Source: a virus
Taxonomy: Duplodnaviria; Heunggongvirae; Uroviricota; Caudoviricetes
Length of the DNA: 39,738 bases
Virus record (IMG/VR): IMGVR_UViG_2529293069_000032
Direction: 5' to 3' (one strand)
Shown here piece by piece: positions 5,278 through 26,830 of this stretch. Position 1 is the first letter of the stretch. Each line of letters opens with the position of its first letter. Under the pieces are notes generated by a model that saw only the letters and a program-made list of their open reading frames with translations, was not told the DNA's origin and did not search any database. Made by a program: the position numbers and the translations under genes.

Positions 5278-5366
5278 GAAACCAGAACATGCACACACAA
5301 AAAAACCGCTTGCCATGCCGCAATCGGTCAGGTTACATTTCCGCTGCACCTCATAAAACGGGTGCC

Positions 5367-5560
5367 GGGATTCTCAACCCGATACAGAGCAAAGCGCATA
5401 ACCGCGCTAGCGGTTTTTTTGTGCGTACTGTATTGCCACGTCTTTTTCGCGTCAGAATTATGGCGGGGCGTACGGGGCCGACTTCGGTCGGGCCGGATTC
5501 TTTGCTCTCCGGTGTTGAGAACCCTGTACGTCTCGCCACCCCGAGATTCTCAACTCTGGA
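5367..5560 (+). ncRNA. Structured non-coding element: long-range stem, UUCG-tetraloop hairpin, internal intrinsic terminator, three ATTCTCAAC copies (candidate attenuator or sRNA)
   Basis: 5367-5394 pairs with 5500-5524 (about 22 bp); hairpin ACCGCGCTAGCGGT+T7 at about 5402-5420; CCGAC-UUCG-GUCGG at about 5477-5495; third motif copy at about 5546-5556. Strand and boundaries uncertain. Confidence 0.3.
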
Positions 5561-5599
5561 TGGTGAGTTATTTCTATCACCGAGCAAAGAGGCCACACC

Positions 5600-5830
5600 A
5601 TGGCAGACCGCAAACAGCACCGCGCTATCGCGGAGCGTCGTCACATCCAGACTGAAATCAACCGCAGACTTTCCCGCGCATCACGCGTCGCGCAAATCAT
5701 GCACATCAATATGCTGCATGAGCGCAGCCACGCACTATCAAACATTTATTCCGCCTCTGTTTTCAGCTATCTGGCGGATGATCTGCACGAGTTTCAACAG
5801 CTCATCCAGCAGCAAAACAAACTCCATTAA
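5600..5830 (+). CDS. Hypothetical protein
   Basis: 76 aa; AAAGAGG SD 7 nt upstream of ATG. Confidence 0.5.
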   Translation: MADRKQHRAIAERRHIQTEINRRLSRASRVAQIMHINMLHERSHALSNIYSASVFSYLADDLHEFQQLIQQQNKLH

Positions 5831-5902
5831 TTCCTGTTCCGGGCCTTTCCTGCACCTTGCGGCGGGAGGCCTTCGCACATCTGTAACAAGAGGATTGCCG
5901 CA

Positions 5903-6268
5903 ATGATTCTCGCCAACGACTTTCTTGAATACCTGCTCAACACAGAACGTGATCTTGCCGCTCGCGTGCGTGATCGTTATGACATGTACCTGAAATCCCT
6001 GCCTGTACCGCAGCTCGCTGACGGAAAGATTGTTATTGATGGTCGCTACATGATTGACAGCCACGAGGGAAATTACAGGCTTTACCGCATTGAAGGTGGC
6101 ACCCCGTCCGTTATTGGCATTTACCAGCGCCCATCCTCTGCAATCGTCGATGAGATTGCCGACAGCATCCGCATCACACATCGCCATGCCGACACAGAAG
6201 ACACCGTGCTGGAAATTCAGCGGCTGGCTACAGCCTGCCGCGACACCCTGAATGGCATGACGAAGTAA
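5903..6268 (+). CDS. Hypothetical protein immediately upstream of gene A
   Basis: 121 aa ORF, high-GC phage-core composition. Confidence 0.55.
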   Translation: MILANDFLEYLLNTERDLAARVRDRYDMYLKSLPVPQLADGKIVIDGRYMIDSHEGNYRLYRIEGGTPSVIGIYQRPSSAIVDEIADSIRITHRHADTEDTVLEIQRLATACRDTLNGMTK

Positions 6269-6274
6269 ATCACT

Positions 6275-9097
6275 ATGACGGCAGAGTACATCAGGGACTG
6301 GCAACAACCGCGCCACGCAGTGGGGCGTGAAGGAACGGGGATCCCCGCTCCTGAATCCGCGCTTTCCTCCTGGCTGGATGCCTACCGGGTAGAGAACGAG
6401 CGCCGCCAGGAAATGGCTGATGCGGCGTTCTCCGCAACGCCGCTGGGCAACCTGATTAATAAAAGCCTGGACGCACAGGAAAAACAGGACAAAACCATCA
6501 CACTGGCAGGAGACGCCAGAAAACAGGCACGCGGTGCGGTGGATGAAGCCATGGCCTCGCTGCGCCTGCTGCCGTCCTATCTGCGCGATCCGCTTATTCG
6601 CCACCTCTCCTTCCTGCGCAAAAAACAGGAAGCCGATCGTCAGAAAGGCAAAAAGAGCTGGCAGGCTGAACGCTACGCGCGCGGAAACCTGCGCAAAATA
6701 TTCGAACGTCTGGAGCGCACCGATCACCGCTGGCTGACACAGGGTTATCGCTCCCTTGCCGGACGCGAACGCCTGGACGATTTGCTTTACCTGCCGCAGC
6801 TCAACAAACACCAGATACAGACGCTGGCCACCATGACGGCGGCGATGTTCAGCAGCACCTTCGAAAAACTCTGCGATGGCTTTGGCGCGACCGATGGCGA
6901 ACTGACCATGGATGTAACGCTGAAGGCGTATCAGATGCTGGCCCGCATGGCGTTACACCTGCACGCCATGCCTCCACATTATGACGCACTGACAACAGAC
7001 AAAGACCGGAGGAACGAACCGGACACGGAGCTGCTGCCGGGCGCAATCCTTCGCCTGACCTGTGCGGAATGGTGGAAACGCAAACTGTGGCTGTTACGTT
7101 GCGAGTGGAGAGAAGAACAACTCCGCGCCGCCTGTCTGGTTTCCAGAAAAACATCGCCCTATCTGAGCCAGGACGCGTTAAGCGAGTTTCGCGCACAGCG
7201 CGAGAAAACACGCGATTTCCTGAAAAGTTTCATGCTGGAAAACGAAGACGGGTTCACGATTGATCTCGAGACAGTGTATTACGCGGGAGTAAGTAACCCG
7301 GTTCACCGTAAGGCAGAAATGATGGCCACCATGAAGGGGCTGGAACTTCTGGCCGAAGCCCGTGGCGACAAAGCGGTGTTTCTGACTGTCACCTGCCCGT
7401 CAAAATACCACGCTACAACAGAGAACGGTCATCCGAATCCCAAATGGAACGGGGCCACCATGCGCGACTCCAGCGATTACCTGGTTAACACGTTTTTTGC
7501 GGCGGTCCGCAAGAAACTGAACCGCGACGGCCTGCGCTGGTATGGCATCCGCACGGTGGAGCCTCACCATGACGGCACCGTGCACTGGCATATGATGGTC
7601 TTTGCTCATCCGGAAGAAATCGACACCATTGTGTCCCACACCCGCGATATTGCCATTCAGGAAGATCGTCACGAGCTGGGCGATGATATTACTCCGCGCT
7701 TTAAGGCGGAGTATGTCGACGGCTCAAAAGGCACGCCAACCAGCTACATCGCCACCTACATCGGAAAAAACCTGGACAGCCGCGCCGTGGATGGCATCGA
7801 CCCGAAAACAGGCAAACCACGCGTTGACCACGAAACCGGAAAATCAATGACCGAGAGCGTGGAACGCGCCATTGGCTGGGCGCGCCTTCACCGGGTCCGC
7901 CAGTTCCAGTTCTTTGGCATCCCCTCCCGTCAGGTGTGGCGTGAACTGCGTCGCCTTGCCAGCCAGATGGCACGCAACCCGGAAGGCCCGCAACGGCTGA
8001 AGGATGACGCAATGGATGCGGTTCTTGCTGCCGCTGATGCCGGATGTTTTGCCACCTACATTGAGAAACAGGGAGGCGTACTTGTTCCACGCAAGGACTA
8101 CCTGATTCGCACCGCCTACGACCTCGCAGATGAGCTGAACGATTACGGCGAACAGAGCGTACAGATTTACGGGATCTGGTCACCACTCATCGGGGAATCC
8201 TCCCGTGTGTGCACGCACCCGGATAACTGGAAGCTGGTAAGACGTAAACCGGGAGTAGAAGACAGCGCCCGCGAAAATGGTTTTGACCTTCAGGGCGGCC
8301 CTGCCGCCCCTTGGACTCGTGGCAATAACTGTCCCCGTGTACAGGAAACGGACAACAACGGGACAGAACAGCCGGAAGAACGGCCAGCACCGTGGCCGCA
8401 GCTTCCTGACGGCGTTGACGTGAACGAATGGATGCGCTCACTGAAACGGCACGAACGCCGGGCGCTGATGCGTTCGCTTCGTGACAAACAGGCAAAAAAC
8501 AGCAGTGATGAAATGCAGAGCTGGACACAGAGCCGCAAACAGCAGCGGCCTTTGCCTGATAACCACGAATTACTCGCTAAAGAATGGCGGGAGTCTGCTG
8601 AATCTCTCGGCCTGCATATCGGTGAACAACAGATGCAGCACCTGTTACGGGGCGGCAGTCTGTACGTTGACGGCAGCATCATTGCACCGCAGGGATTTGA
8701 AATTGTACGCAAACCGGATACCCGCCCGGACAGCCGAATCACGCAGCTCTGGCAGCGCCTGAGCCGTAATCATGGCGTAAGCAGCACGGAGATCCGCCAT
8801 AACCCGGTCGCCAGCTATCTGGCACAGCTGGGGGCATCAGACCCTGAAGCCGCCGCACGCCTGGCATCCACACTTCAGCAGGACCAGAACACCATGAAAA
8901 CACCCGTTACCGTGCTTTCTGACATGCTGCGCGCCATCCGCGACGCAGAGCACGCACAGAGAATCAGTGAAACCACTGAACGCGCCAGCCGCAAAGCAGA
9001 CCTGCTGCGGGGTGGCCTGACCAGTGGAAACAAAAAACAGACAGAAACGGGACTCACAAATCCCGTAAATGAGCAAAAAACGCGCCGCGATATATGA
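6275..9097 (+). CDS. A: Rolling-circle replication initiation endonuclease (P2 gpA family), with long C-terminal extension
   Basis: 940 aa; HUH-type motif TVHWHMMVF and surrounding GPA-family pattern; canonical P2 A is about 760 aa, so about 180 aa of Q/R-rich C-terminal extension. Confidence 0.85.
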   Translation: MTAEYIRDWQQPRHAVGREGTGIPAPESALSSWLDAYRVENERRQEMADAAFSATPLGNLINKSLDAQEKQDKTITLAGDARKQARGAVDEAMASLRLLPSYLRDPLIRHLSFLRKKQEADRQKGKKSWQAERYARGNLRKIFERLERTDHRWLTQGYRSLAGRERLDDLLYLPQLNKHQIQTLATMTAAMFSSTFEKLCDGFGATDGELTMDVTLKAYQMLARMALHLHAMPPHYDALTTDKDRRNEPDTELLPGAILRLTCAEWWKRKLWLLRCEWREEQLRAACLVSRKTSPYLSQDALSEFRAQREKTRDFLKSFMLENEDGFTIDLETVYYAGVSNPVHRKAEMMATMKGLELLAEARGDKAVFLTVTCPSKYHATTENGHPNPKWNGATMRDSSDYLVNTFFAAVRKKLNRDGLRWYGIRTVEPHHDGTVHWHMMVFAHPEEIDTIVSHTRDIAIQEDRHELGDDITPRFKAEYVDGSKGTPTSYIATYIGKNLDSRAVDGIDPKTGKPRVDHETGKSMTESVERAIGWARLHRVRQFQFFGIPSRQVWRELRRLASQMARNPEGPQRLKDDAMDAVLAAADAGCFATYIEKQGGVLVPRKDYLIRTAYDLADELNDYGEQSVQIYGIWSPLIGESSRVCTHPDNWKLVRRKPGVEDSARENGFDLQGGPAAPWTRGNNCPRVQETDNNGTEQPEERPAPWPQLPDGVDVNEWMRSLKRHERRALMRSLRDKQAKNSSDEMQSWTQSRKQQRPLPDNHELLAKEWRESAESLGLHIGEQQMQHLLRGGSLYVDGSIIAPQGFEIVRKPDTRPDSRITQLWQRLSRNHGVSSTEIRHNPVASYLAQLGASDPEAAARLASTLQQDQNTMKTPVTVLSDMLRAIRDAEHAQRISETTERASRKADLLRGGLTSGNKKQTETGLTNPVNEQKTRRDI

Positions 9098-9140
9098 AGC
9101 GCGCACAAAACAGGCAAAAGCGGGATTTAAAAATCCTGTA
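9030..9140. promoter_or_regulatory. Candidate parC-like centromere/operator upstream of parM
   Basis: Two direct repeats about 75 bp apart (ACAAAAAACAGACAGAAACGGGACT at about 9030-9054; ACAAAACAGGCAAAAGCGGGATT at about 9105-9127), each ending in a short palindrome; overlaps the 3' end of A. Confidence 0.35.
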
Positions 9141-9173
9141 ACCGATTAATTAATCAACATAAGGAAAAGCGAC

Positions 9174-10133
9174 ATGAAAATTTGTATCGACGACGGCTCC
9201 ACCAACATCAAGCTGGCATGGACTGAGAACGGCGAACGCCGCAACGCCATCAGCCCGAACAGCTTCAAGTCGGAATGGTCTGCGCCATTCGGTGGCACGC
9301 AGCCCGCGAACTACATGCTTGATGGCGTGCGCTATGGTTTTGATCCGGTCAGCGATCGCTTTGTCCAGACGACCGACACGCAATACCAGTACAGCGATGT
9401 GAATGTAATTGCCATTCATCACGCGCTGGTCAAATCAGGCATCACACCACAGGAAGTGGATGTGGTTGTCACCCTGCCACTGAGCGAGTATTTCGATACA
9501 AACGCACAGCCGGACATGGCCAACATCAACCGCAAAAAAGCGAACGTCATGCGCCCGGTGGAGTACCAGAACGGCGAAGCATTCACTATCCGTAACGTAC
9601 GGGTTATGCCTGAATCCATTCCTGCTGGCTTTAAGGCACTGGCTGACATGAGTCCGTTTGAATCCCTGCTGATTGTGGATTTGGGCGGAACCACGCTGGA
9701 TGTGGCAAAGGTTCAGGGGCAACTGGCAGGTATCAGCCAGGTGTTTTGCGATCCACACGTAGGCGTTTCTCTGATGGCCGATGCCGTACTGTCGGTGATG
9801 GCCACTAACGGTATGCGCACCAGTCACCACATCGCCAATACCATTATCGAACATCGCCATGATGAAGCCTGGCTGCGCCAGCACATCCACAATGACGCGC
9901 ATTACGCCAGCCTGATGGCGGTTATTCGTGAAAAGGAAGAAACACTGAAACAACGCGTGATCCGCGCGCTGGCGGTTTTTTCGGGTTACGGGCGGGTGAT
10001 GGTTGTCGGTGGCGGGGCGGAGATTGTGGCACCCGCTATCCGCGAAGCCTGCGGAGTTAATGCGACTTTCATCGCGGACGGGGTGCCACAGTTTGCTCTG
10101 GTTAATGGGTTGTACGCAATGAACAAGGAGTAA
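9174..10133 (+). CDS. parM: ParM/StbA-family actin-like segregation ATPase
   Basis: 319 aa; N-terminal MKICIDDGSTNIKLAW phosphate-1 motif; ISPNSFK, YSDVNV-A-HHAL, NI-RKKAN, VMPESIPAG, LLIVDLGGTTLD, VMVVGGGAE blocks match recalled R1 ParM. Confidence 0.8.
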   Translation: MKICIDDGSTNIKLAWTENGERRNAISPNSFKSEWSAPFGGTQPANYMLDGVRYGFDPVSDRFVQTTDTQYQYSDVNVIAIHHALVKSGITPQEVDVVVTLPLSEYFDTNAQPDMANINRKKANVMRPVEYQNGEAFTIRNVRVMPESIPAGFKALADMSPFESLLIVDLGGTTLDVAKVQGQLAGISQVFCDPHVGVSLMADAVLSVMATNGMRTSHHIANTIIEHRHDEAWLRQHIHNDAHYASLMAVIREKEETLKQRVIRALAVFSGYGRVMVVGGGAEIVAPAIREACGVNATFIADGVPQFALVNGLYAMNKE

Positions 10134-10137
10134 ACCA

Positions 10138-10452
10138 ATGACGACACCAACCAGACGGATAAGTTTCTATCTGAAGCCCGCCGCCGTCAAGAGTGAACAG
10201 GAGGCGTGCAATTACCTCGATAGCCTGCCAGCCTCCGAACGCAGCCGCGCGCAACGCGCGGCCTTTCTGGCTGGGCTAGCACTCATAAAGCGCAACCCAG
10301 CATTTGCCTACTGGATGGCCGAATGGCCAGAGGACAACCTCCCCTTCAATACCGTTAGCATCAAGGAAACATACCAGGCTAATCAGCCTAGCGGAGTTGA
10401 ATGCAATTTTTATAAAATAAAAAAGAATATTCAGACCTTATTCCCAGAATAA
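10138..10452 (+). CDS. parR: ParR-like centromere-binding adaptor
   Basis: 104 aa directly after parM; N-terminal pattern R-I-F-L-P ... LDSLPASERSRAQRAAFLAGLAL resembles recalled R1 ParR. Confidence 0.55.
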   Translation: MTTPTRRISFYLKPAAVKSEQEACNYLDSLPASERSRAQRAAFLAGLALIKRNPAFAYWMAEWPEDNLPFNTVSIKETYQANQPSGVECNFYKIKKNIQTLFPE

Positions 10453-10500
10453 TCTGATAATTGTATGTGAACTAATAAAATACATACCAACACATCATTC

Positions 10501-10523
10501 TGGCACCCTTGCAACAGGGTGCC
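10501..10523. terminator. Bidirectional hairpin between convergent parR and cargo gene
   Basis: GGCACCC-loop-GGGTGCC inverted repeat in the 82-bp convergent gap. Confidence 0.45.
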
Positions 10524-10534
10524 AATGTTTCAAA

Positions 10535-11377
10535 TCATGATGAAATTGCCGAAGTTTTTTTATCGTGCTGAAGTACCGCAAATGCCATTAAAACCTCAAG
10601 AGAATAGCGGCGATAATACTTAACAAAACCATAATAAAATACTCGGGATGCAGCAAGACAAAACAAGAGAAGAAAACAAAAAGGTAACAGCCTGATATTT
10701 ATATCTATTAAAAAGGATAGAGGGAACAGACATATAAGCAACCAGACTGAAGCGAGAAAAACAAATGTAATGTTTCTACAAAAACCATACAAAGCAACAT
10801 AGTTTTGCATTTTCACCTGATGATTTTTAGAATGCTCATACACATAATGATAAGCAAGGCGAAAAAGATCGCCCCTCAAGCCCTTACGTCGATATAGCGT
10901 AGATACAGAAAAAACATTTATATAACCATCTCGTATTTGCGGCCAAAAGACTTTAATAAGTATAGAATGCAGTGTGGTTTTATGATGTTCTGCTTTATCA
11001 AAAACTGATACAGGAAGTAGAAAAACTCCACGAATAAAATGAACTATACTGAACTTAGTATTATGTCGTTTTATTTTCAGGGGACTTCTTTTAGAAAACA
11101 GATAAATTGAAGGATACCCAAGTTTACTGTTCATATATTTTTCAATTAAACAGGATGATAGAATAGATATGAAGTGACCTGAAATATATGACAGAACAAT
11201 TAATACCACATATATAAACACACTTATTATTTCTTTATATTTCAGGATGTGGTTAAAAACACCTTCTATATAAACAGGGTTAATTTCAATAGAAAACAAA
11301 AAAAGGATAAACAGGAATAACCCACCTGGAATTAGATAGCCCAAAAAGTCATAAAATGAAAACGGATTCTGTGTCAC
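10535..11377 (-). CDS. Polytopic membrane protein (cargo gene 2, unknown function)
   Basis: 280 aa; several hydrophobic helices (FLGYLIPGGLFLFILFLFSI, IISVFIYVVLIVLSYISGHFISIL, NITFVFLASVWLLICLFPLSFLI, LLPFCFLLLFCLAA); AT-rich; GTG start after AGGGGGAAG SD. Confidence 0.7.
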   Translation of the reverse strand: MTQNPFSFYDFLGYLIPGGLFLFILFLFSIEINPVYIEGVFNHILKYKEIISVFIYVVLIVLSYISGHFISILSSCLIEKYMNSKLGYPSIYLFSKRSPLKIKRHNTKFSIVHFIRGVFLLPVSVFDKAEHHKTTLHSILIKVFWPQIRDGYINVFSVSTLYRRKGLRGDLFRLAYHYVYEHSKNHQVKMQNYVALYGFCRNITFVFLASVWLLICLFPLSFLIDINIRLLPFCFLLLFCLAASRVFYYGFVKYYRRYSLEVLMAFAVLQHDKKTSAISS

Positions 11378-11416
11378 ACTTCCCCCTGTGTTACTTGTAA
11401 ATTAAAGGGTAAAACA

Positions 11417-11914
11417 TTATTTGTTTTTCCGTAAAGGATTAGCTTTCCATCTTCTTACTAACCATTCGAATTCTTGATATGTAGTATCCGAATTAATGCT
11501 TTCTCTGATTGCTTTAATTAATGGCTCGGCAATATCATATGTCTCTACAACTGTTGTGTAAGATGTTCTTTTTATCATTTTTTCATCATAAATACCTTCA
11601 CGAATACTTACAGCAACTCGCTCGTAAAAATTTAAAATATATTGAAATTTTCGACGCTCGGCCATTTCCTCATCTGTTATTGTACAACCATCACAAGGAA
11701 AAACATAAGAACGAAATGATTTGCCTGAACGATGCACTTGTTTCAGGGTATGCAATGACTCTATATATTGCATATCTTGCCGACTCTCAAAAAGAAAGTT
11801 AGCCGTTTGAGTTTTCTTTGCGGTACGCACATTGTAGATAATGGTTCCAATGGCAACCAAAACGCCAAGCAGAACAATAGCATTGCTGATGATTTGTAGT
11901 GTTATTGGGTTCAT
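11417..11914 (-). CDS. Single-pass membrane protein with soluble C-terminal domain (cargo gene 1, unknown function)
   Basis: 165 aa; N-terminal helix (LQIISNAIVLLGVLVAIGTIIY) then charged soluble domain; AT-rich; 39 bp upstream of gene 2. Confidence 0.7.
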   Translation of the reverse strand: MNPITLQIISNAIVLLGVLVAIGTIIYNVRTAKKTQTANFLFESRQDMQYIESLHTLKQVHRSGKSFRSYVFPCDGCTITDEEMAERRKFQYILNFYERVAVSIREGIYDEKMIKRTSYTTVVETYDIAEPLIKAIRESINSDTTYQEFEWLVRRWKANPLRKNK

Positions 11915-11933
11915 CCTATTTCATCCATAAAAA

Positions 11934-11955
11934 AGGCGGGGAGCAAATCCCCGCC
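11934..11955. other. GC-rich palindrome GGCGGGGA-GCAAA-TCCCCGCC: minus-strand intrinsic terminator/attenuator or cos-related element
   Basis: 8-bp stem followed by T6 on the minus strand immediately 5' of cargo gene 1; AGGCGGGGA resembles part of the recalled P2/186 cohesive-end sequence. Confidence 0.35.
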
Positions 11956-12111
11956 TCATTAGAGGTCAACGTAGCTTAGAAACCATCAAATTCATCATAC
12001 ATTTTTTTCATATCAACCCCCTCATAGAAATCATAACCACGTTTTGTGGTTTTTGTGACGCATAAACTACATCAAAGGCAAGCTACGGTCAAATATATGG
12101 GCATGCTTACC

Positions 12112-12138
12112 TGCACAAAAGTGCACAAATTTGCACAA
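12112..12138. repeat. Three helically phased TGCACAA direct repeats (10-bp period)
   Basis: TGCACAAAAG TGCACAAATT TGCACAATTT read directly; nearby GGATCCGT x2 at about 12182-12200 and palindrome AAAAAAACGCGTTTTTT at about 12208-12226. Confidence 0.6.
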
Positions 12139-12511
12139 TTTTTTTGAACGACTTTTTGCCCTTCCGGCCCGCGTGGCGGCTGGATCCGTCAGGGATCCGT
12201 GCGTGCACAAAAAAACGCGTTTTTTCTGCGCGCAGGTGACGGGGGAACAGCCCGCGTTTCAGGGGGTAAATAGCATTCCATGAACGATGTCGCAGCGACA
12301 CAACAGAATGGCTGTATTTCTCACACTGAGCGTGAAAAAGACGTGAGGGCTTTTGATTTGATGGGGTGACAGATAAGGCAGTCAAAATCGCACTGAGGCG
12401 GCAAGAACATGCAGTCAACGCGGTGGGATTGCGTAAGAGCCTGATCGTCGATGATGGCGATAAGCTGGAAGACGTCGTGAAATTATCTGATTGATACAGG
12501 AGCTGGAGAGT

Positions 12512-12536
12512 CGGGGCATAAATTTTTTATGCCCCG
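12512..12536. terminator. Hairpin just downstream of portal gene stop (possible terminator)
   Basis: GGGGCATAAA-TTT-TTTATGCCCC perfect 10-bp stem; no clear U-tract. Confidence 0.35.
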
Positions 12537-12562
12537 GCGAAGCAGCAGACAAGCGAAGCGCG

Positions 12563-23771: not shown

Positions 23772-25931
23772 ATGAGTACCACAACACGAAAATTTAAAAC
23801 CATTATCACTGATACTGGTGCCAAAAAATTAGCTCAGGCAGCCGCGCCAGATGGTAATCCTGTCCGCCTGACTCACATGGCCGTGGGCGACGGTGGCGGC
23901 ACGTTGCCCACACCAGACAGTAAGCAGACCCGTCTGGTGCATGAGGTGTGGCGACATACTGTTAATCGCGTCATCCTGGACGCAACACATCAGAACCGCA
24001 TTATTGCGGAGCTGGTTATTCCTCCTGAAACGGGCGGATTCTGGATCCGGGAAATTGGTGTATTTGATGAGCACGGCGATTTGATCGCGGTGGGCAATAC
24101 TGCCGAAAGTTACAAACCAACCGTTGCCGAAGGATCCGGACGTGCACAAACATTTCGCACCATTCTGACCGTATCCAGCACTGCCACCGTGGCGCTTACC
24201 GTGGATAACACCATGGTTATGGCCACAGTGGATTACGTGAATGACAAACTGAAAGAACATGAACAGTCACGACGTCACCCGGACGCCTCGCTGACCGCAA
24301 AAGGCTTTGTTCAACTCAGTAGCGCCACCAACAGCACGTCTGAAGCACTGGCCGCAACGCCGAAAGCGGTCAAGGCAGCCTATGACCTTGCTATCGGGAA
24401 ATATACCGCACAGGACGCCACTACAGCGCGGAAAGGACTTGTCCAGCTCAGTAGCGCCACCAACAGCGATTCAGAAACGCTGGCGGCAACACCAAAGGCG
24501 GTAAAGGCAACATATGACCTTGCTAACGGGAAATATACTGCGCAGGATGCCACCACAGCGCGGAAAGGCCTTGTCCAGCTCAGTAGCGCCACCAACAGCA
24601 CGTCTGAAGCACTGGCCGCAACACCGAAAGCGGTAAAGACAGCATATGACCTTGCTAACGGGAAATATACCGCTCAGGACGCTACGACAGCACAAAAAGG
24701 GATTGTCCAGCTAAGCAGCGCGACTAACAGCGCATCTGAAACGCTTGCTGCGACATCGAAAGCAGTGAAAGCAGCTAATGACAATGCGAATGGTCGGGTA
24801 CCTTCTGCCCGTAAGGTGAATGGTAAGGCGCTTTCAGCGGATATAACACTGACACCGAAAGATATTGGTACGCTTAACTCAACAACTATGTCATTCAGCG
24901 GTGGTGCTGGTTGGTTCAAATTAGCAACGGTAACCATGCCGCAGGCGAGTTCTGTTGTTTCAATTACGTTGATTGGTGGGGCTGGATATAACGTCGGTTC
25001 ACCTCAACAGGCAGGTATATCTGAACTTGTTTTGCGTGCAGGTAATGGTAATCCGAAGGGGATTACTGGTGCTTTATGGCAGCGCACATCGGCAGGGTTT
25101 ACAAATTTTGCCTGGGTCAATACATCTGGTGATACTTACGATATTTACGTTGCAATCGGAAATTATGCGACTGGTGTAAATATTCAATGGGATTATACCA
25201 GTAACGCCAGCGTAACGATTCATACTTCACCAGCATATTCTGCTAATAAGCCGGAAGGATTAACGGACGGTTCTGTTTATTCGCTGTATATTTCGCCTCA
25301 TGAACTTTATCCGGTTGGCGCACCGATCCCTTGGCCATCAGATACCGTTCCGTCTGGTTATGCCCTGATGCAGGGGCAGACTTTTGACAAATCTGCATAC
25401 CCGAAACTTGCAGCCGCTTATCCGTCAGGCGTGATCCCTGATATGCGTGGCTGGACGATTAAGGGCAAGCCCGCCAGTGGTCGTGCCGTATTGTCTCAGG
25501 AACAGGACGGCATTAAATCGCACACCCACAGCGCCAGCGTATCCAGTACGGATTTGGGTACGAAAACCACATCGTCGTTTGATTACGGGACGAAAACAAC
25601 CTCACTATTTGACTATGGGACCAAAACTACCAGTAACGCCGGGAGTCACACGCATTCAATACCAACATCAGATGGTGCAAACCAGGGGGGGAAAATTCCA
25701 CTGACATCTGGGCGTCTGGCAACTCAATATACATCAGCAACAACAGGTTCCTCTGGCTCACATTCTCATACTGTAGGTATTGGTTCTCATCAGCACACTG
25801 TCGGTATTGGTGCACACACGCACTCGGTTGCGATTGGCTCACATGGACACACCATCACCGTTAACGCTGCTGGTAACGCGGAAAACACCGTCAAAAACAT
25901 CGCATTTAACTATATTGTGAGGCTTGCATGA
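23772..25931 (+). CDS. H: Tail fibre protein H
   Basis: 719 aa; conserved N-terminal baseplate-attachment region, internal tandem repeats, C-terminal His-box tip ([32 protein letters not shown]). Confidence 0.85.
24300..24790 (+). repeat. About 3.7 tandem copies of a 132-bp (44-aa) repeat inside gene H
   Basis: Units start at 24300, 24432, 24564, 24696 (K-G-[FLI]-VQLSSATNS...TAQDATTA[RQ]); nearly identical at DNA level. Confidence 0.85.
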
Positions 25932-26830
25932 TTACGCTCATTCTTTCTGCACCAGTAACAGAAATGGCTGAAGCATTTAAGCGGGTATTTGCAAACGCAG
26001 ATAATGTGAATATTGTCGGAAAGCCATTTGAAACAATCAGAGAATTTGACTGTATGGTAAGTGCGGCAAATAGTTTCGGCCTGATGGATGGCGGTGTTGA
26101 TGCCGCCATTACCGCATTCTTCGGTACTCAGTTACAGTCCCGCGTTCAGAATCATATTCTTCGTGAATATCTAGGCGAGCAGCCTGTAGGATCTGCGTTT
26201 GTTATTGAAACGGGGCATAATCATCACCCCTGGCTGGTACATGCGCCAACAATGCGTGTTCCGCTGACAATTGACGGAACAGACGCTGTATATAACGCAA
26301 CCTGGGCCGCTCTGCTTGCCATCTTTCAGCACAATAAAAACGCAACGACAGACAGGAAAATAAAGACGGTGGTATTCCCTGCGATGGGGGCTGGATGTGG
26401 TCAGGTACCGTTTGAAAGTGTTGCCCGCCAGATGAAGCAGGCCTGGGATAACTTTAATAAAAAAACAGAATCAATTAACTGGGAATACGCACAATCCCGC
26501 CAGTCGGCAGTATTTGGCACATATGCATACTGTCCGGGTAATTCTGTTTGCCGTTATGCGGATGCTAAATATATTGGATGCGGCGATTATCGGACGTATT
26601 GCTCACGTTCCGGGCAGGTCTGTATTAACCCTGAACATCAGGCTGATGATGTACTGATACAACATCAGGCTAATAACCGGTTTCGCCCTGATTCGCATAT
26701 ACACCGGATTAATCCAGAAAATCCCGTAGGTAATGTCACCTCTGGCGCACATAGCCACAGAAGTAGCATCGTTATTGGTGCTCACACCCATACGCTCAAT
26801 AAACAATATTCTGTCTCTGATATTAAGTAG
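25928..26830 (+). CDS. Macro-domain protein with Cys-rich, tail-fibre-like His-box C-terminus, coupled to H
   Basis: 300 aa; ATGA overlap with H stop; macro signature [18 protein letters not shown] plus [12 protein letters not shown]-terminus [18 protein letters not shown] resembles H tip His-boxes. Confidence 0.7.

Follow-up and report, generated by a model that had tools for sequence, protein, structure and literature searches.

The ParMRC (parA/stb) system of plasmids R1 and R100, in which a cis-acting site, parC, is followed by the genes for the actin-like ATPase ParM and the adaptor ParR, is the closest described counterpart of the locus studied here. In R1, parC is made up of ten 11-bp A/C-rich direct iterons that flank a strong promoter; the ParR of pB171 (StbB) presumably also binds arrays of short direct repeats. 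A pair of this type is found in the tailed temperate Escherichia coli phage D6 (MF356679), a 91-kb P1-like plasmid prophage. In the Corynebacterium glutamicum prophage CGP3, the early-induced AlpA and AlpC attach circular phage DNA to filaments, and efficient replication of the phage depends on them (Donovan et al. 2015, PMC4446434; PMC5539076). Here we analyze a parC-parM-parR cassette in a 39,738-nt stretch of DNA from a tailed phage of the class Caudoviricetes (IMG/VR record IMGVR_UViG_2529293069_000032; hereafter the window). Plasmid-like maintenance has already been suggested for such cassettes (Pfeifer et al. 2021, PMC7969092; Rousset et al. 2022, PMC9122126), and RefSeq annotates this one, correctly, in over a thousand genomes. 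Being known both as an annotation and as a hypothesis, it is ordinary as a sequence finding; what we add is a two-palindrome parC candidate embedded in the replication gene A, synteny across genera, a mosaic parR and population data that speak against stable lysogeny as a plasmid.

The window is a P2-family prophage integrated next to yecA. In the chromosome of E. coli O157 strain 493/89, to which it is 100% identical, the prophage lies between yecA and the remaining chromosome with the phage integrase first; among named phages, P88 and other members of Xuanwuvirus (a genus of the family Peduoviridae) are closest to it. A sequence-only reading of the window had proposed an integrated P2-like prophage in which gene A is followed by an R1 ParM-like gene and a ParR-like adaptor, a combination that it held to be absent from P2. 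The yecA junction and the match to strain 493/89 establish the first of these points; the family profiles of ParM/StbA and ParR, both matched, establish the next two; and P2 indeed has orf91, tin and old at the corresponding position and no ParM. As judged from its genes and repeats, the module is a complete type II (actin-type) ParMRC segregation cassette; the evidence set out below covers the identity of ParM and ParR and their integrity, the upstream repeats, the conserved gene order and the selection acting on the cassette.

The gene directly after A codes for a protein that matches Pfam StbA_N (1.8e-82) and the ParM C-domain (6.3e-69), both far over the cut-off, aligns with the R1 ParM structure 1MWK over residues 2-316 (E 7.3e-93) and belongs to PHROG 691, ‘partition protein’ (1.8e-90). 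It is 46% identical to R1-type StbA and 47-48% identical to the StbA of phage D6, which, among cultured phage groups, is the only one in which we found a relative of this ParM. NCBIfam returned just sub-threshold matches to models of other ParM types (PRK13917, 19 bits vs a cut-off of 417), which are uninformative. In a three-way alignment with the R1-type and D6 proteins, the ATPase motifs DDGSTNIK, E147, DLGGTTLD and GGGA are invariant (residues D6, D7, G8, S9, T10, E147, D169-T174 and G279-A282), with E147 aligned to E148 and D169 to D170 of R1; we take these aligned residues to be catalytically important, as in R1. The gene is under strong purifying selection, with a ratio of nonsynonymous to synonymous diversity (pN/pS) of 0.065. 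It is cleanly intact in 86 of 87 copies, the remaining one (L068) having its stop at the normal position and failing an ambiguous-base filter, and the protein is at least 99% identical in amino acids across 80 IMG/VR loci.

The 104-residue product of the following open reading frame (ORF) belongs to the StbB/ParR family PF10784 (7.7e-29). Its only solved relative is the ParR of pB171 (2JD3), to which residues 9-73 show weak similarity (E 0.012 with the single sequence and 0.0086 with a profile of 46 homologues). The anatomy of the protein was derived from 46 aligned E. coli-clade representatives at 90% identity. In these, the core of the predicted DNA-reading beta-strand, RRISFYLK (residues 6-13), is invariant (46/46), the helical region that follows occurs as two allele families, and the last ten residues are conserved as (K/G)NI(Q/R)x(L/F)FPE, with F102 and P103 invariant and N97 and I98 at least 90% conserved. 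Residues 87-101 are predicted to be helical in an AlphaFold2 model, and the segment corresponds to what we take to be the ParM-binding part of ParR in the R1 ParM-ParR peptide structure 4A62. In layout the protein thus appears as expected of a ParR, with a flexible linker joining a DNA-binding domain to a motor-binding peptide, and we infer that it binds ParM. The AlphaFold2 monomer (46 sequences) had a mean predicted local distance difference test score (pLDDT) of 60 and showed the N-terminal strand as a helix, and a Foldseek search of it against the PDB gave only matches with E >6, meaningless as expected of an obligate dimer. An actin-fold ATPase of the ParM/StbA family with intact nucleotide motifs and a PF10784 adaptor downstream are the proteins by which a type II partition system is recognized, and we regard it as highly probable that the cassette is a genuine, functional ParMRC.

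The two direct repeats of about 23 bp, each ending in a small palindrome, that had been noticed upstream of parM proved to be real and longer than reported, namely 38 nt with 20-bp palindromes (Table 1). The palindrome has the consensus ACGGGATT-N4-AATCCCGT, which is perfect in most related loci and carries one and two mismatches in the window copies. With up to three mismatches allowed, the consensus occurs three times in the window vs 0.12 expected; the two best matches are those at 9047-9066 and 9120-9139, and elsewhere there is just one, with three mismatches. Across 85 related loci, which give 62 distinct upstream sequences, the arms hardly change, whereas the 4-bp spacer and the flanks vary. 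Fixed arms around a free spacer are the pattern that a dimeric DNA-binding protein would impose, although a hairpin stem would give a similar one, and the invariant core of the ParR beta-strand fits the conserved arms. The palindromes are thus a good candidate, and probably the actual choice, for the centromere of the cassette. The region 8986-9173 was also examined for a centromere of the kind in which repeated sites lie over a promoter: an R1-type array of ten 11-bp iterons is absent, the palindromes are predicted sites only, and no consensus sigma-70 promoter was found 5' of parM, just a poor TTTAAA-17-ATTAAT picked out by eye. A 12-bp perfect palindrome, GATTAATTAATC, precedes the ribosome-binding site; in related loci it appears as GGTTAATTAACC, with changes on both sides that keep the symmetry, or as the half-changed GGTTAATTAATC, and its core ATTAATCAA is also present 5' of parM in Hafnia and Plesiomonas.

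The repeats could instead be RNA hairpins serving as terminators or processing sites, or operators of another regulator, in which case ParR would bind elsewhere, e.g., at A/C-rich stretches resembling R1 iterons. Copy 1 read on the minus strand does resemble a hairpin with a T-rich tail. The related loci of other genera also differ in this region: Hafnia has AAACCCAAAAAC, identical to an R1 iteron, 5' of parM along with only one degenerate palindrome, and Serratia and Enterobacter have a common AAAA(C/T)GGGAAC start in a larger inverted-repeat layout. However, the hairpins are weak (-9 to -10 kcal/mol), the minus strand of copy 2 is less stable when folded than shuffled sequences (z +0.96), no Rfam family was matched in 8800-10700, and no gene is transcribed towards the repeats. 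Moreover, the arm-and-spacer pattern fits a dimeric DNA-binding protein and the sites occur only beside parM. In Plesiomonas, a pair of CGGGAC-N8-CCCG elements lies 72 bp apart, the first of them, as in the window, at the 3' end of A. We therefore consider a role of the palindromes other than that of a centromere unlikely. Two further candidates were dropped: phasing of A-tracts as a sign of an intrinsic bend in 8986-9173 (six tracts, Rayleigh statistic 0.58, p ~0.35), and covariation of the ParR helix alleles with palindrome variants, of which there was none, both ParR families occurring with both spacer variants.

The first palindrome lies inside gene A, and the left edge of the module is marked by a sister prophage with the same A type but without parC-parM-parR (L100; E. 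coli JNE181771, NZ_AP027156.1), which has an AAA ATPase and an S8 peptidase instead. This prophage is ~97% identical to the window and colinear with it up to ~8985, and unrelated beyond. The module can thus be seen as beginning ~60 bp before palindrome 1 and taking in the end of gene A; as the break falls 112 nt before the A stop codon, the C-termini of A differ between the two lineages. In the final 150 nt of A, synonymous diversity (pS) is 0.057 vs 0.150 in the preceding 1.35 kb, about one third, and protein constraint is relaxed (pN/pS 0.76 vs 0.27 upstream), which is the pattern expected from an overlapping constraint at the DNA level. In one of the IMG/VR loci (L010-L089), a 73-bp deletion equivalent to window positions 9048-9120 fuses both direct repeats, so that the normal end of A and its stop codon are gone and a single palindrome stands 5' of an intact parM.

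Table 1. Positions of the partition cassette and of neighbouring features in the window (nt).
Feature	Position	Strand	Remarks
Gene A, P2-type replication endonuclease, 940 aa	6275-9097	+	Pfam Phage_GPA 2.1e-131; directly 5' of par module, same orientation
Homologue of the P2 ori nick site, inside gene A	8295-8332	+	DNA alignment; ~0.75 kb from candidate parC
Candidate parC region, left part of par module	8986-9173	+	Covers last 112 nt of A and the 76-bp A-parM spacer; from L100 boundary and A 3'-end diversity
Direct repeat copy 1 (A-rich arm and palindrome)	9031-9068	+	38 nt, reference copy; inside A 3' end (about the last 50 nt)
Palindrome 1, ACGGGAcT-CACA-AATCCCGT	9047-9066	.	Arms kept across related loci; N4 spacer and position 9053 vary
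Direct repeat copy 2	9104-9141	+	79% identical to copy 1; start-to-start distance 73 bp; in A-parM spacer
Palindrome 2, gCGGGATT-TAAA-AATCCtGT	9120-9139	.	34-53 bp 5' of parM ATG; arms nearly invariant; spacer TAAA or TCAG
12-bp perfect palindrome GATTAATTAATC	9144-9155	.	Just 5' of ribosome-binding site; read from sequence
parM, actin-like ATPase, 319 aa	9174-10133	+	Starts 76 bp after A
parR, predicted ribbon-helix-helix adaptor, 104 aa	10138-10452	+	Begins 4 nt after parM stop; PF10784 7.7e-29
parR codons 1-18, with predicted DNA-reading beta-strand RRISFYLKP	10138-10191	+	Strand assigned from the known ribbon-helix-helix fold of pB171 ParR
Hypervariable ParR linker, ~aa 67-92	10336-10413	+	Alignment; pLDDT <50 in AlphaFold2 model
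ParR C-terminal motif KIKKNIQTLFPE, candidate ParM-binding helix	10417-10449	+	Aligns with KKNAMKLIN of R1-type ParR; Asn invariant
GC-rich hairpin GGCACCCT-TGCAAC-AGGGTGCC	10502-10523	.	Between convergent parR and cargo genes; -17 kcal/mol, z -2.6; likely bidirectional terminator

The association of the cassette with gene A extends beyond Escherichia. A one-genome-per-species scan with the single ParM gave three close loci, and a protein search provided the more distant relatives, of which we examined the contexts of the four closest non-Escherichia ones, at 54-62% identity, and of two at 49-50%. The former all show the order gpA-parM-parR-...-portal in P2-like prophages (Hafnia and Plesiomonas, ParM 62% each; Serratia, 58%; Enterobacter, 54%), and the latter lie in plasmid or conjugative-element contexts. 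The phage-type ParR beta-strand is retained in Hafnia and Plesiomonas (TRR(I/V)SFYL(K/N)P) and in Serratia (NRKISFYLKP), and all three proteins have the LFP end. The cross-genus synteny and the purifying selection together argue against a recent import of the cassette from a plasmid. Rather, these sequence comparisons indicate that it is an old, selected part of the replication-gene cluster in one branch of the P2 family, comprising the P88-like phages and their relatives, with a fast-evolving centromere.

To assess the state in which these phages persist, we queried 5,426 complete E. coli genomes. A parC-parM-parR query found the cassette in 1,304 genomes (~24%) at 1,444 places, 1,442 of them chromosomal and 2 on plasmid records; an A-parM query gave 1,633 places in 1,444 genomes, 1,631 chromosomal and again 2 on plasmid records. 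As the places outnumber the genomes in both queries, more than 100 genomes hold 2-4 copies. These counts bear on the idea, preferred in the sequence-only reading and stated in the two studies cited above, that the element is a facultative plasmid prophage with both integrated and episomal lysogenic states, the cassette keeping the phage as a low-copy episome when it is not integrated. A complete and selected partition cassette is what such a lifestyle calls for, and the P1-like plasmid prophage D6 uses an StbA/StbB pair of the same kind. A single phage-sized circle was found among 72,556 plasmid records (PLSDB), the 34,461-bp circular pZ1323PEC0009-2 (NZ_CP148288.1), which is a complete P88-like genome deposited as a plasmid and closed at attP. 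It may represent an episomal lysogen, or it may be no more than phage DNA that was excised or replicating when the culture was sequenced.

However, this one circle retains an integrase, of a type that sits next to pdxB in ~300 genomes, and an integrase is present in all three of the complete or near-complete elements examined. The other close matches among plasmid records include four large records of 272 kb-1.4 Mb; the two that we inspected are a piece of prophage flanked by IS26 on an IncC plasmid and a linear fragment from Shigella. Furthermore, gpA, which belongs to the lytic gene cluster, is the sole replicase in the RefSeq annotation of the prophage, with no plasmid-type initiator annotated and no ORF-by-ORF search for cryptic initiators made. 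The multiple copies per genome point the same way: the ParR N-terminus, including its DNA-reading strand, and the palindrome arms are invariant or nearly so across the sampled loci, and such sharing would make plasmids incompatible, yet 2-4 copies coexist. Stable episomal lysogeny is hence rare at best, and the extrachromosomal maintenance that defines a phage-plasmid was not found in the population data; we consider the facultative plasmid prophage improbable. Of the sequence-only reading, then, the parM-parR module with centromere-like repeats 5' of it, absent from P2, stands, whereas maintenance as an extrachromosomal replicon is weakly supported; its fallback, that ParM filaments serve another purpose, is the one that we favour.

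Two of the plasmid records deserve a brief description. pZ1323PEC0009-2 closes between int and a DNA methyltransferase gene and carries a Hok/Gef family gene. The IncC plasmid is the conjugative KPC plasmid pC-Ec2-KPC (NZ_MK439959.1), in which a ~23 kb P88-like prophage piece (14083-37958) lies between two IS26 copies; it includes A, parM, parR and the same DUF4760 cargo as the window and is a fragment captured by IS26.

The genomic setting suggests when the cassette acts. No plus-strand terminator-like site was found in 5500-10452; parM and parR are on the same strand as A with no terminator between them and a strong hairpin after them, and are therefore expected to be co-expressed with the replication protein, so that parMR is likely to be made together with the replication functions. 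Gene A also contains a homologue of the P2 ori nick site: the P2 record places the nick at 29892, and the DNA alignment conserves GCGGC..GCCGC.CCT.GGA.TC.TG.CAATAACTGT. P2-type replication yields monomeric circles, which we assume from P2 biology to hold for P88-like phages as well, and such plasmid-like circles would therefore be a natural substrate for ParMRC. By homology to R1, ParR dimers would bind both 20-bp palindromes 5' of parM through the N-terminal ribbon-helix-helix, the conserved C-terminal helix of ParR would capture the growing end of ATP-ParM filaments, and filament growth between two ParR-parC complexes would push two DNA copies apart. The DNA so moved would be the free circular phage genome, both after infection and before integration, and after induction during gpA-driven replication; the state served would not be a stably maintained plasmid prophage. 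We put the chance that the role of ParMRC lies in this transient extrachromosomal phase at about even. On a broader and more tentative view, a quarter of the E. coli P2-family prophages and their relatives in at least four other enterobacterial genera might use a domesticated plasmid spindle in the viral life cycle, its filaments either separating the monomeric circles made by gpA-driven replication or, while the choice between lysis and lysogeny is being made, ensuring that each daughter cell receives unintegrated genomes.

Several observations weigh against such a role. About 6% of prophages with the same A type appear without parMR, and the cassette is therefore dispensable for persistence as a prophage. 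Two palindromes stand against ten iterons in R1 parC, so that the real centromere may include, or be, something else. If the TTTAAA-17-ATTAAT sequence, which overlaps palindrome 2, were active in lysogens, the argument from timing would fail. Finally, a literature search gave no expression, binding or phenotype data and no functional study on the cassette.

The 3' side of the cassette borders the variable gpA-gpQ hotspot, and this border runs through parR. The DNA of parR is ~98% identical to that of P88 up to 10192 and ~55% beyond, and which downstream cargo set a phage carries goes strictly with its 3' parR allele (21 cargo clusters in ~80 loci); a recombination edge of the hotspot therefore lies inside parR. 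This raises the question of whether parMR is itself accessory cargo, used in exclusion or competition, e.g., through partition incompatibility against superinfecting phages or plasmids, or through anti-phage ParM filaments. Its position at the edge of a known P2 defence hotspot (PMC9122126) would suit such a function, as would the recombination of 3' parR with the neighbouring cargo and the diversity of ParR, which forms more than 60 clusters at 90% identity vs 2-4 for ParM. However, no PADLOC defence model matched ParM or ParR; parM, the parR N-terminus and parC stay constant while 21 cargo sets swap alongside them; and the order A-parM-parR is kept in four other genera at 54-62% ParM identity. 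The ParR beta-strand and parC are also unlike their R1 counterparts, which makes cross-talk with IncF plasmids unlikely, and on balance we regard a cargo function as very improbable.

The hotspot cargo proper (10453-12562) includes a 280-aa multi-pass membrane protein encoded on the minus strand (10535-11377; PHROG 12528, with a weak PADLOC match to Csx27, 4e-5), followed by a second minus-strand gene (11417-11914) for a DUF4760 protein (1.1e-34); their hotspot position suggests that they are a candidate defence pair. At the other end of the A-parM-parR cluster, Rfam matches to isrK (63 bits, gathering threshold 50; 5346-5420, +) and to C4 antisense RNA (78.5 bits, gathering threshold 45; 5456-5543, +) occur in a region that also has a plus-strand terminator-like hairpin (5400-5415) and two GATTCTCAA target-like repeats (5369 and 5545). 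This region lies just 5' of a derepression-protein gene (5600-5830), after which come an ORF at 5903-6268 and then A, and it resembles an antisense-RNA/antirepressor module of the P1 immI type that heads the cluster. The GATTCTCAA repeats were considered as kin of parC since they resemble the repeats upstream of StbA in D6; as they lie in the region matching isrK and C4, we read them as C4 target-like instead. Within A, CTGTCCCCGTGTACAG at 8329-8344 contains a perfect CTGT-N8-ACAG dyad resembling a LexA box, its first four bases overlapping the end of the ori nick-site homologue. A search for a LexA box near the derepression gene or parM was negative, this dyad at 8329 being the only CTGT-N8-ACAG, at chance level (0.51 expected in the window). 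Away from the cluster, RefSeq places a macro-domain protein at ~25928-26830 (36929-37831 in L001), between the tail-fibre and tail-fibre assembly genes, with a serine O-acetyltransferase directly after it; both are unusual passengers for a tail-fibre region.

The cassette is both common, occurring in about a quarter of the complete E. coli genomes, and strongly constrained by purifying selection. The system would be easy to study, as P88 is inducible and plaque-forming and assays for R1 ParMRC exist. A role on transient phage circles would make it the first actin-type segregation machine to serve the life cycle of a classical small coliphage, and an actin-like cytoskeleton would then have to be counted among the usual parts of such a temperate phage, not as a device for plasmid maintenance; the two-palindrome centromere embedded in a replication gene would likewise be a new minimal design of parC. 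Were episomal lysogeny to hold instead, the line between integrative prophages and phage-plasmids would be blurred for one of the commonest prophage families, with consequences for the counting of prophages and the movement of cargo.

In comparison with R1/R100, the window cassette shares the order of cis site, parM and parR, a ParM with all ATPase motifs and a PF10784 ParR. The C-termini of the two ParR proteins can be aligned (KKNIQTLFPE in the window vs KKNAMKLIN in the R1 type), and the ribosome-binding context is similar (CATAAGGA). The beta-strand reads RRISFYLKP in the window vs RRTIAFKLNP in R1, and the window ParR is shorter, lacking the internal IVNILRSLFP segment. Unlike its R1 counterpart, the cassette is on an integrated phage, and its candidate centromere is a pair of 20-bp palindromes spaced by 73 bp, one half lying within the coding end of A, in place of an iteron array with a strong promoter. 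The similarity to pB171 ParR covers the ribbon-helix-helix region and is weak (E ~0.01). D6 resembles the window prophage as a tailed temperate E. coli phage with an R1-type ParM followed by StbB, and its depositors remark on the similarity to the StbA of P88. It differs in being a plasmid prophage with no chromosomal state, in having TTCTCAAA-type direct repeats upstream rather than CGGGATT palindromes, and in its StbB, which is only 22-25% identical to the window ParR.

The AlpC/AlpA/alpS system of CGP3 is similar in architecture only: there too, an integrated prophage encodes an actin-like filament former and a DNA-binding adaptor, with the adaptor site 5' of the operon, and the role proposed here, on excised circular phage DNA during replication, is of the AlpAC kind. 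The gene order in CGP3 is alpA then alpC, whereas the window system is a close R1-type ParM/ParR pair, known from sequence alone; AlpC is, we assume, a distant actin-like protein and not a close relative of ParM. AlpAC can therefore be seen as the nearest functional precedent for the cassette, the likeness being probably one of functional class and not of homology.

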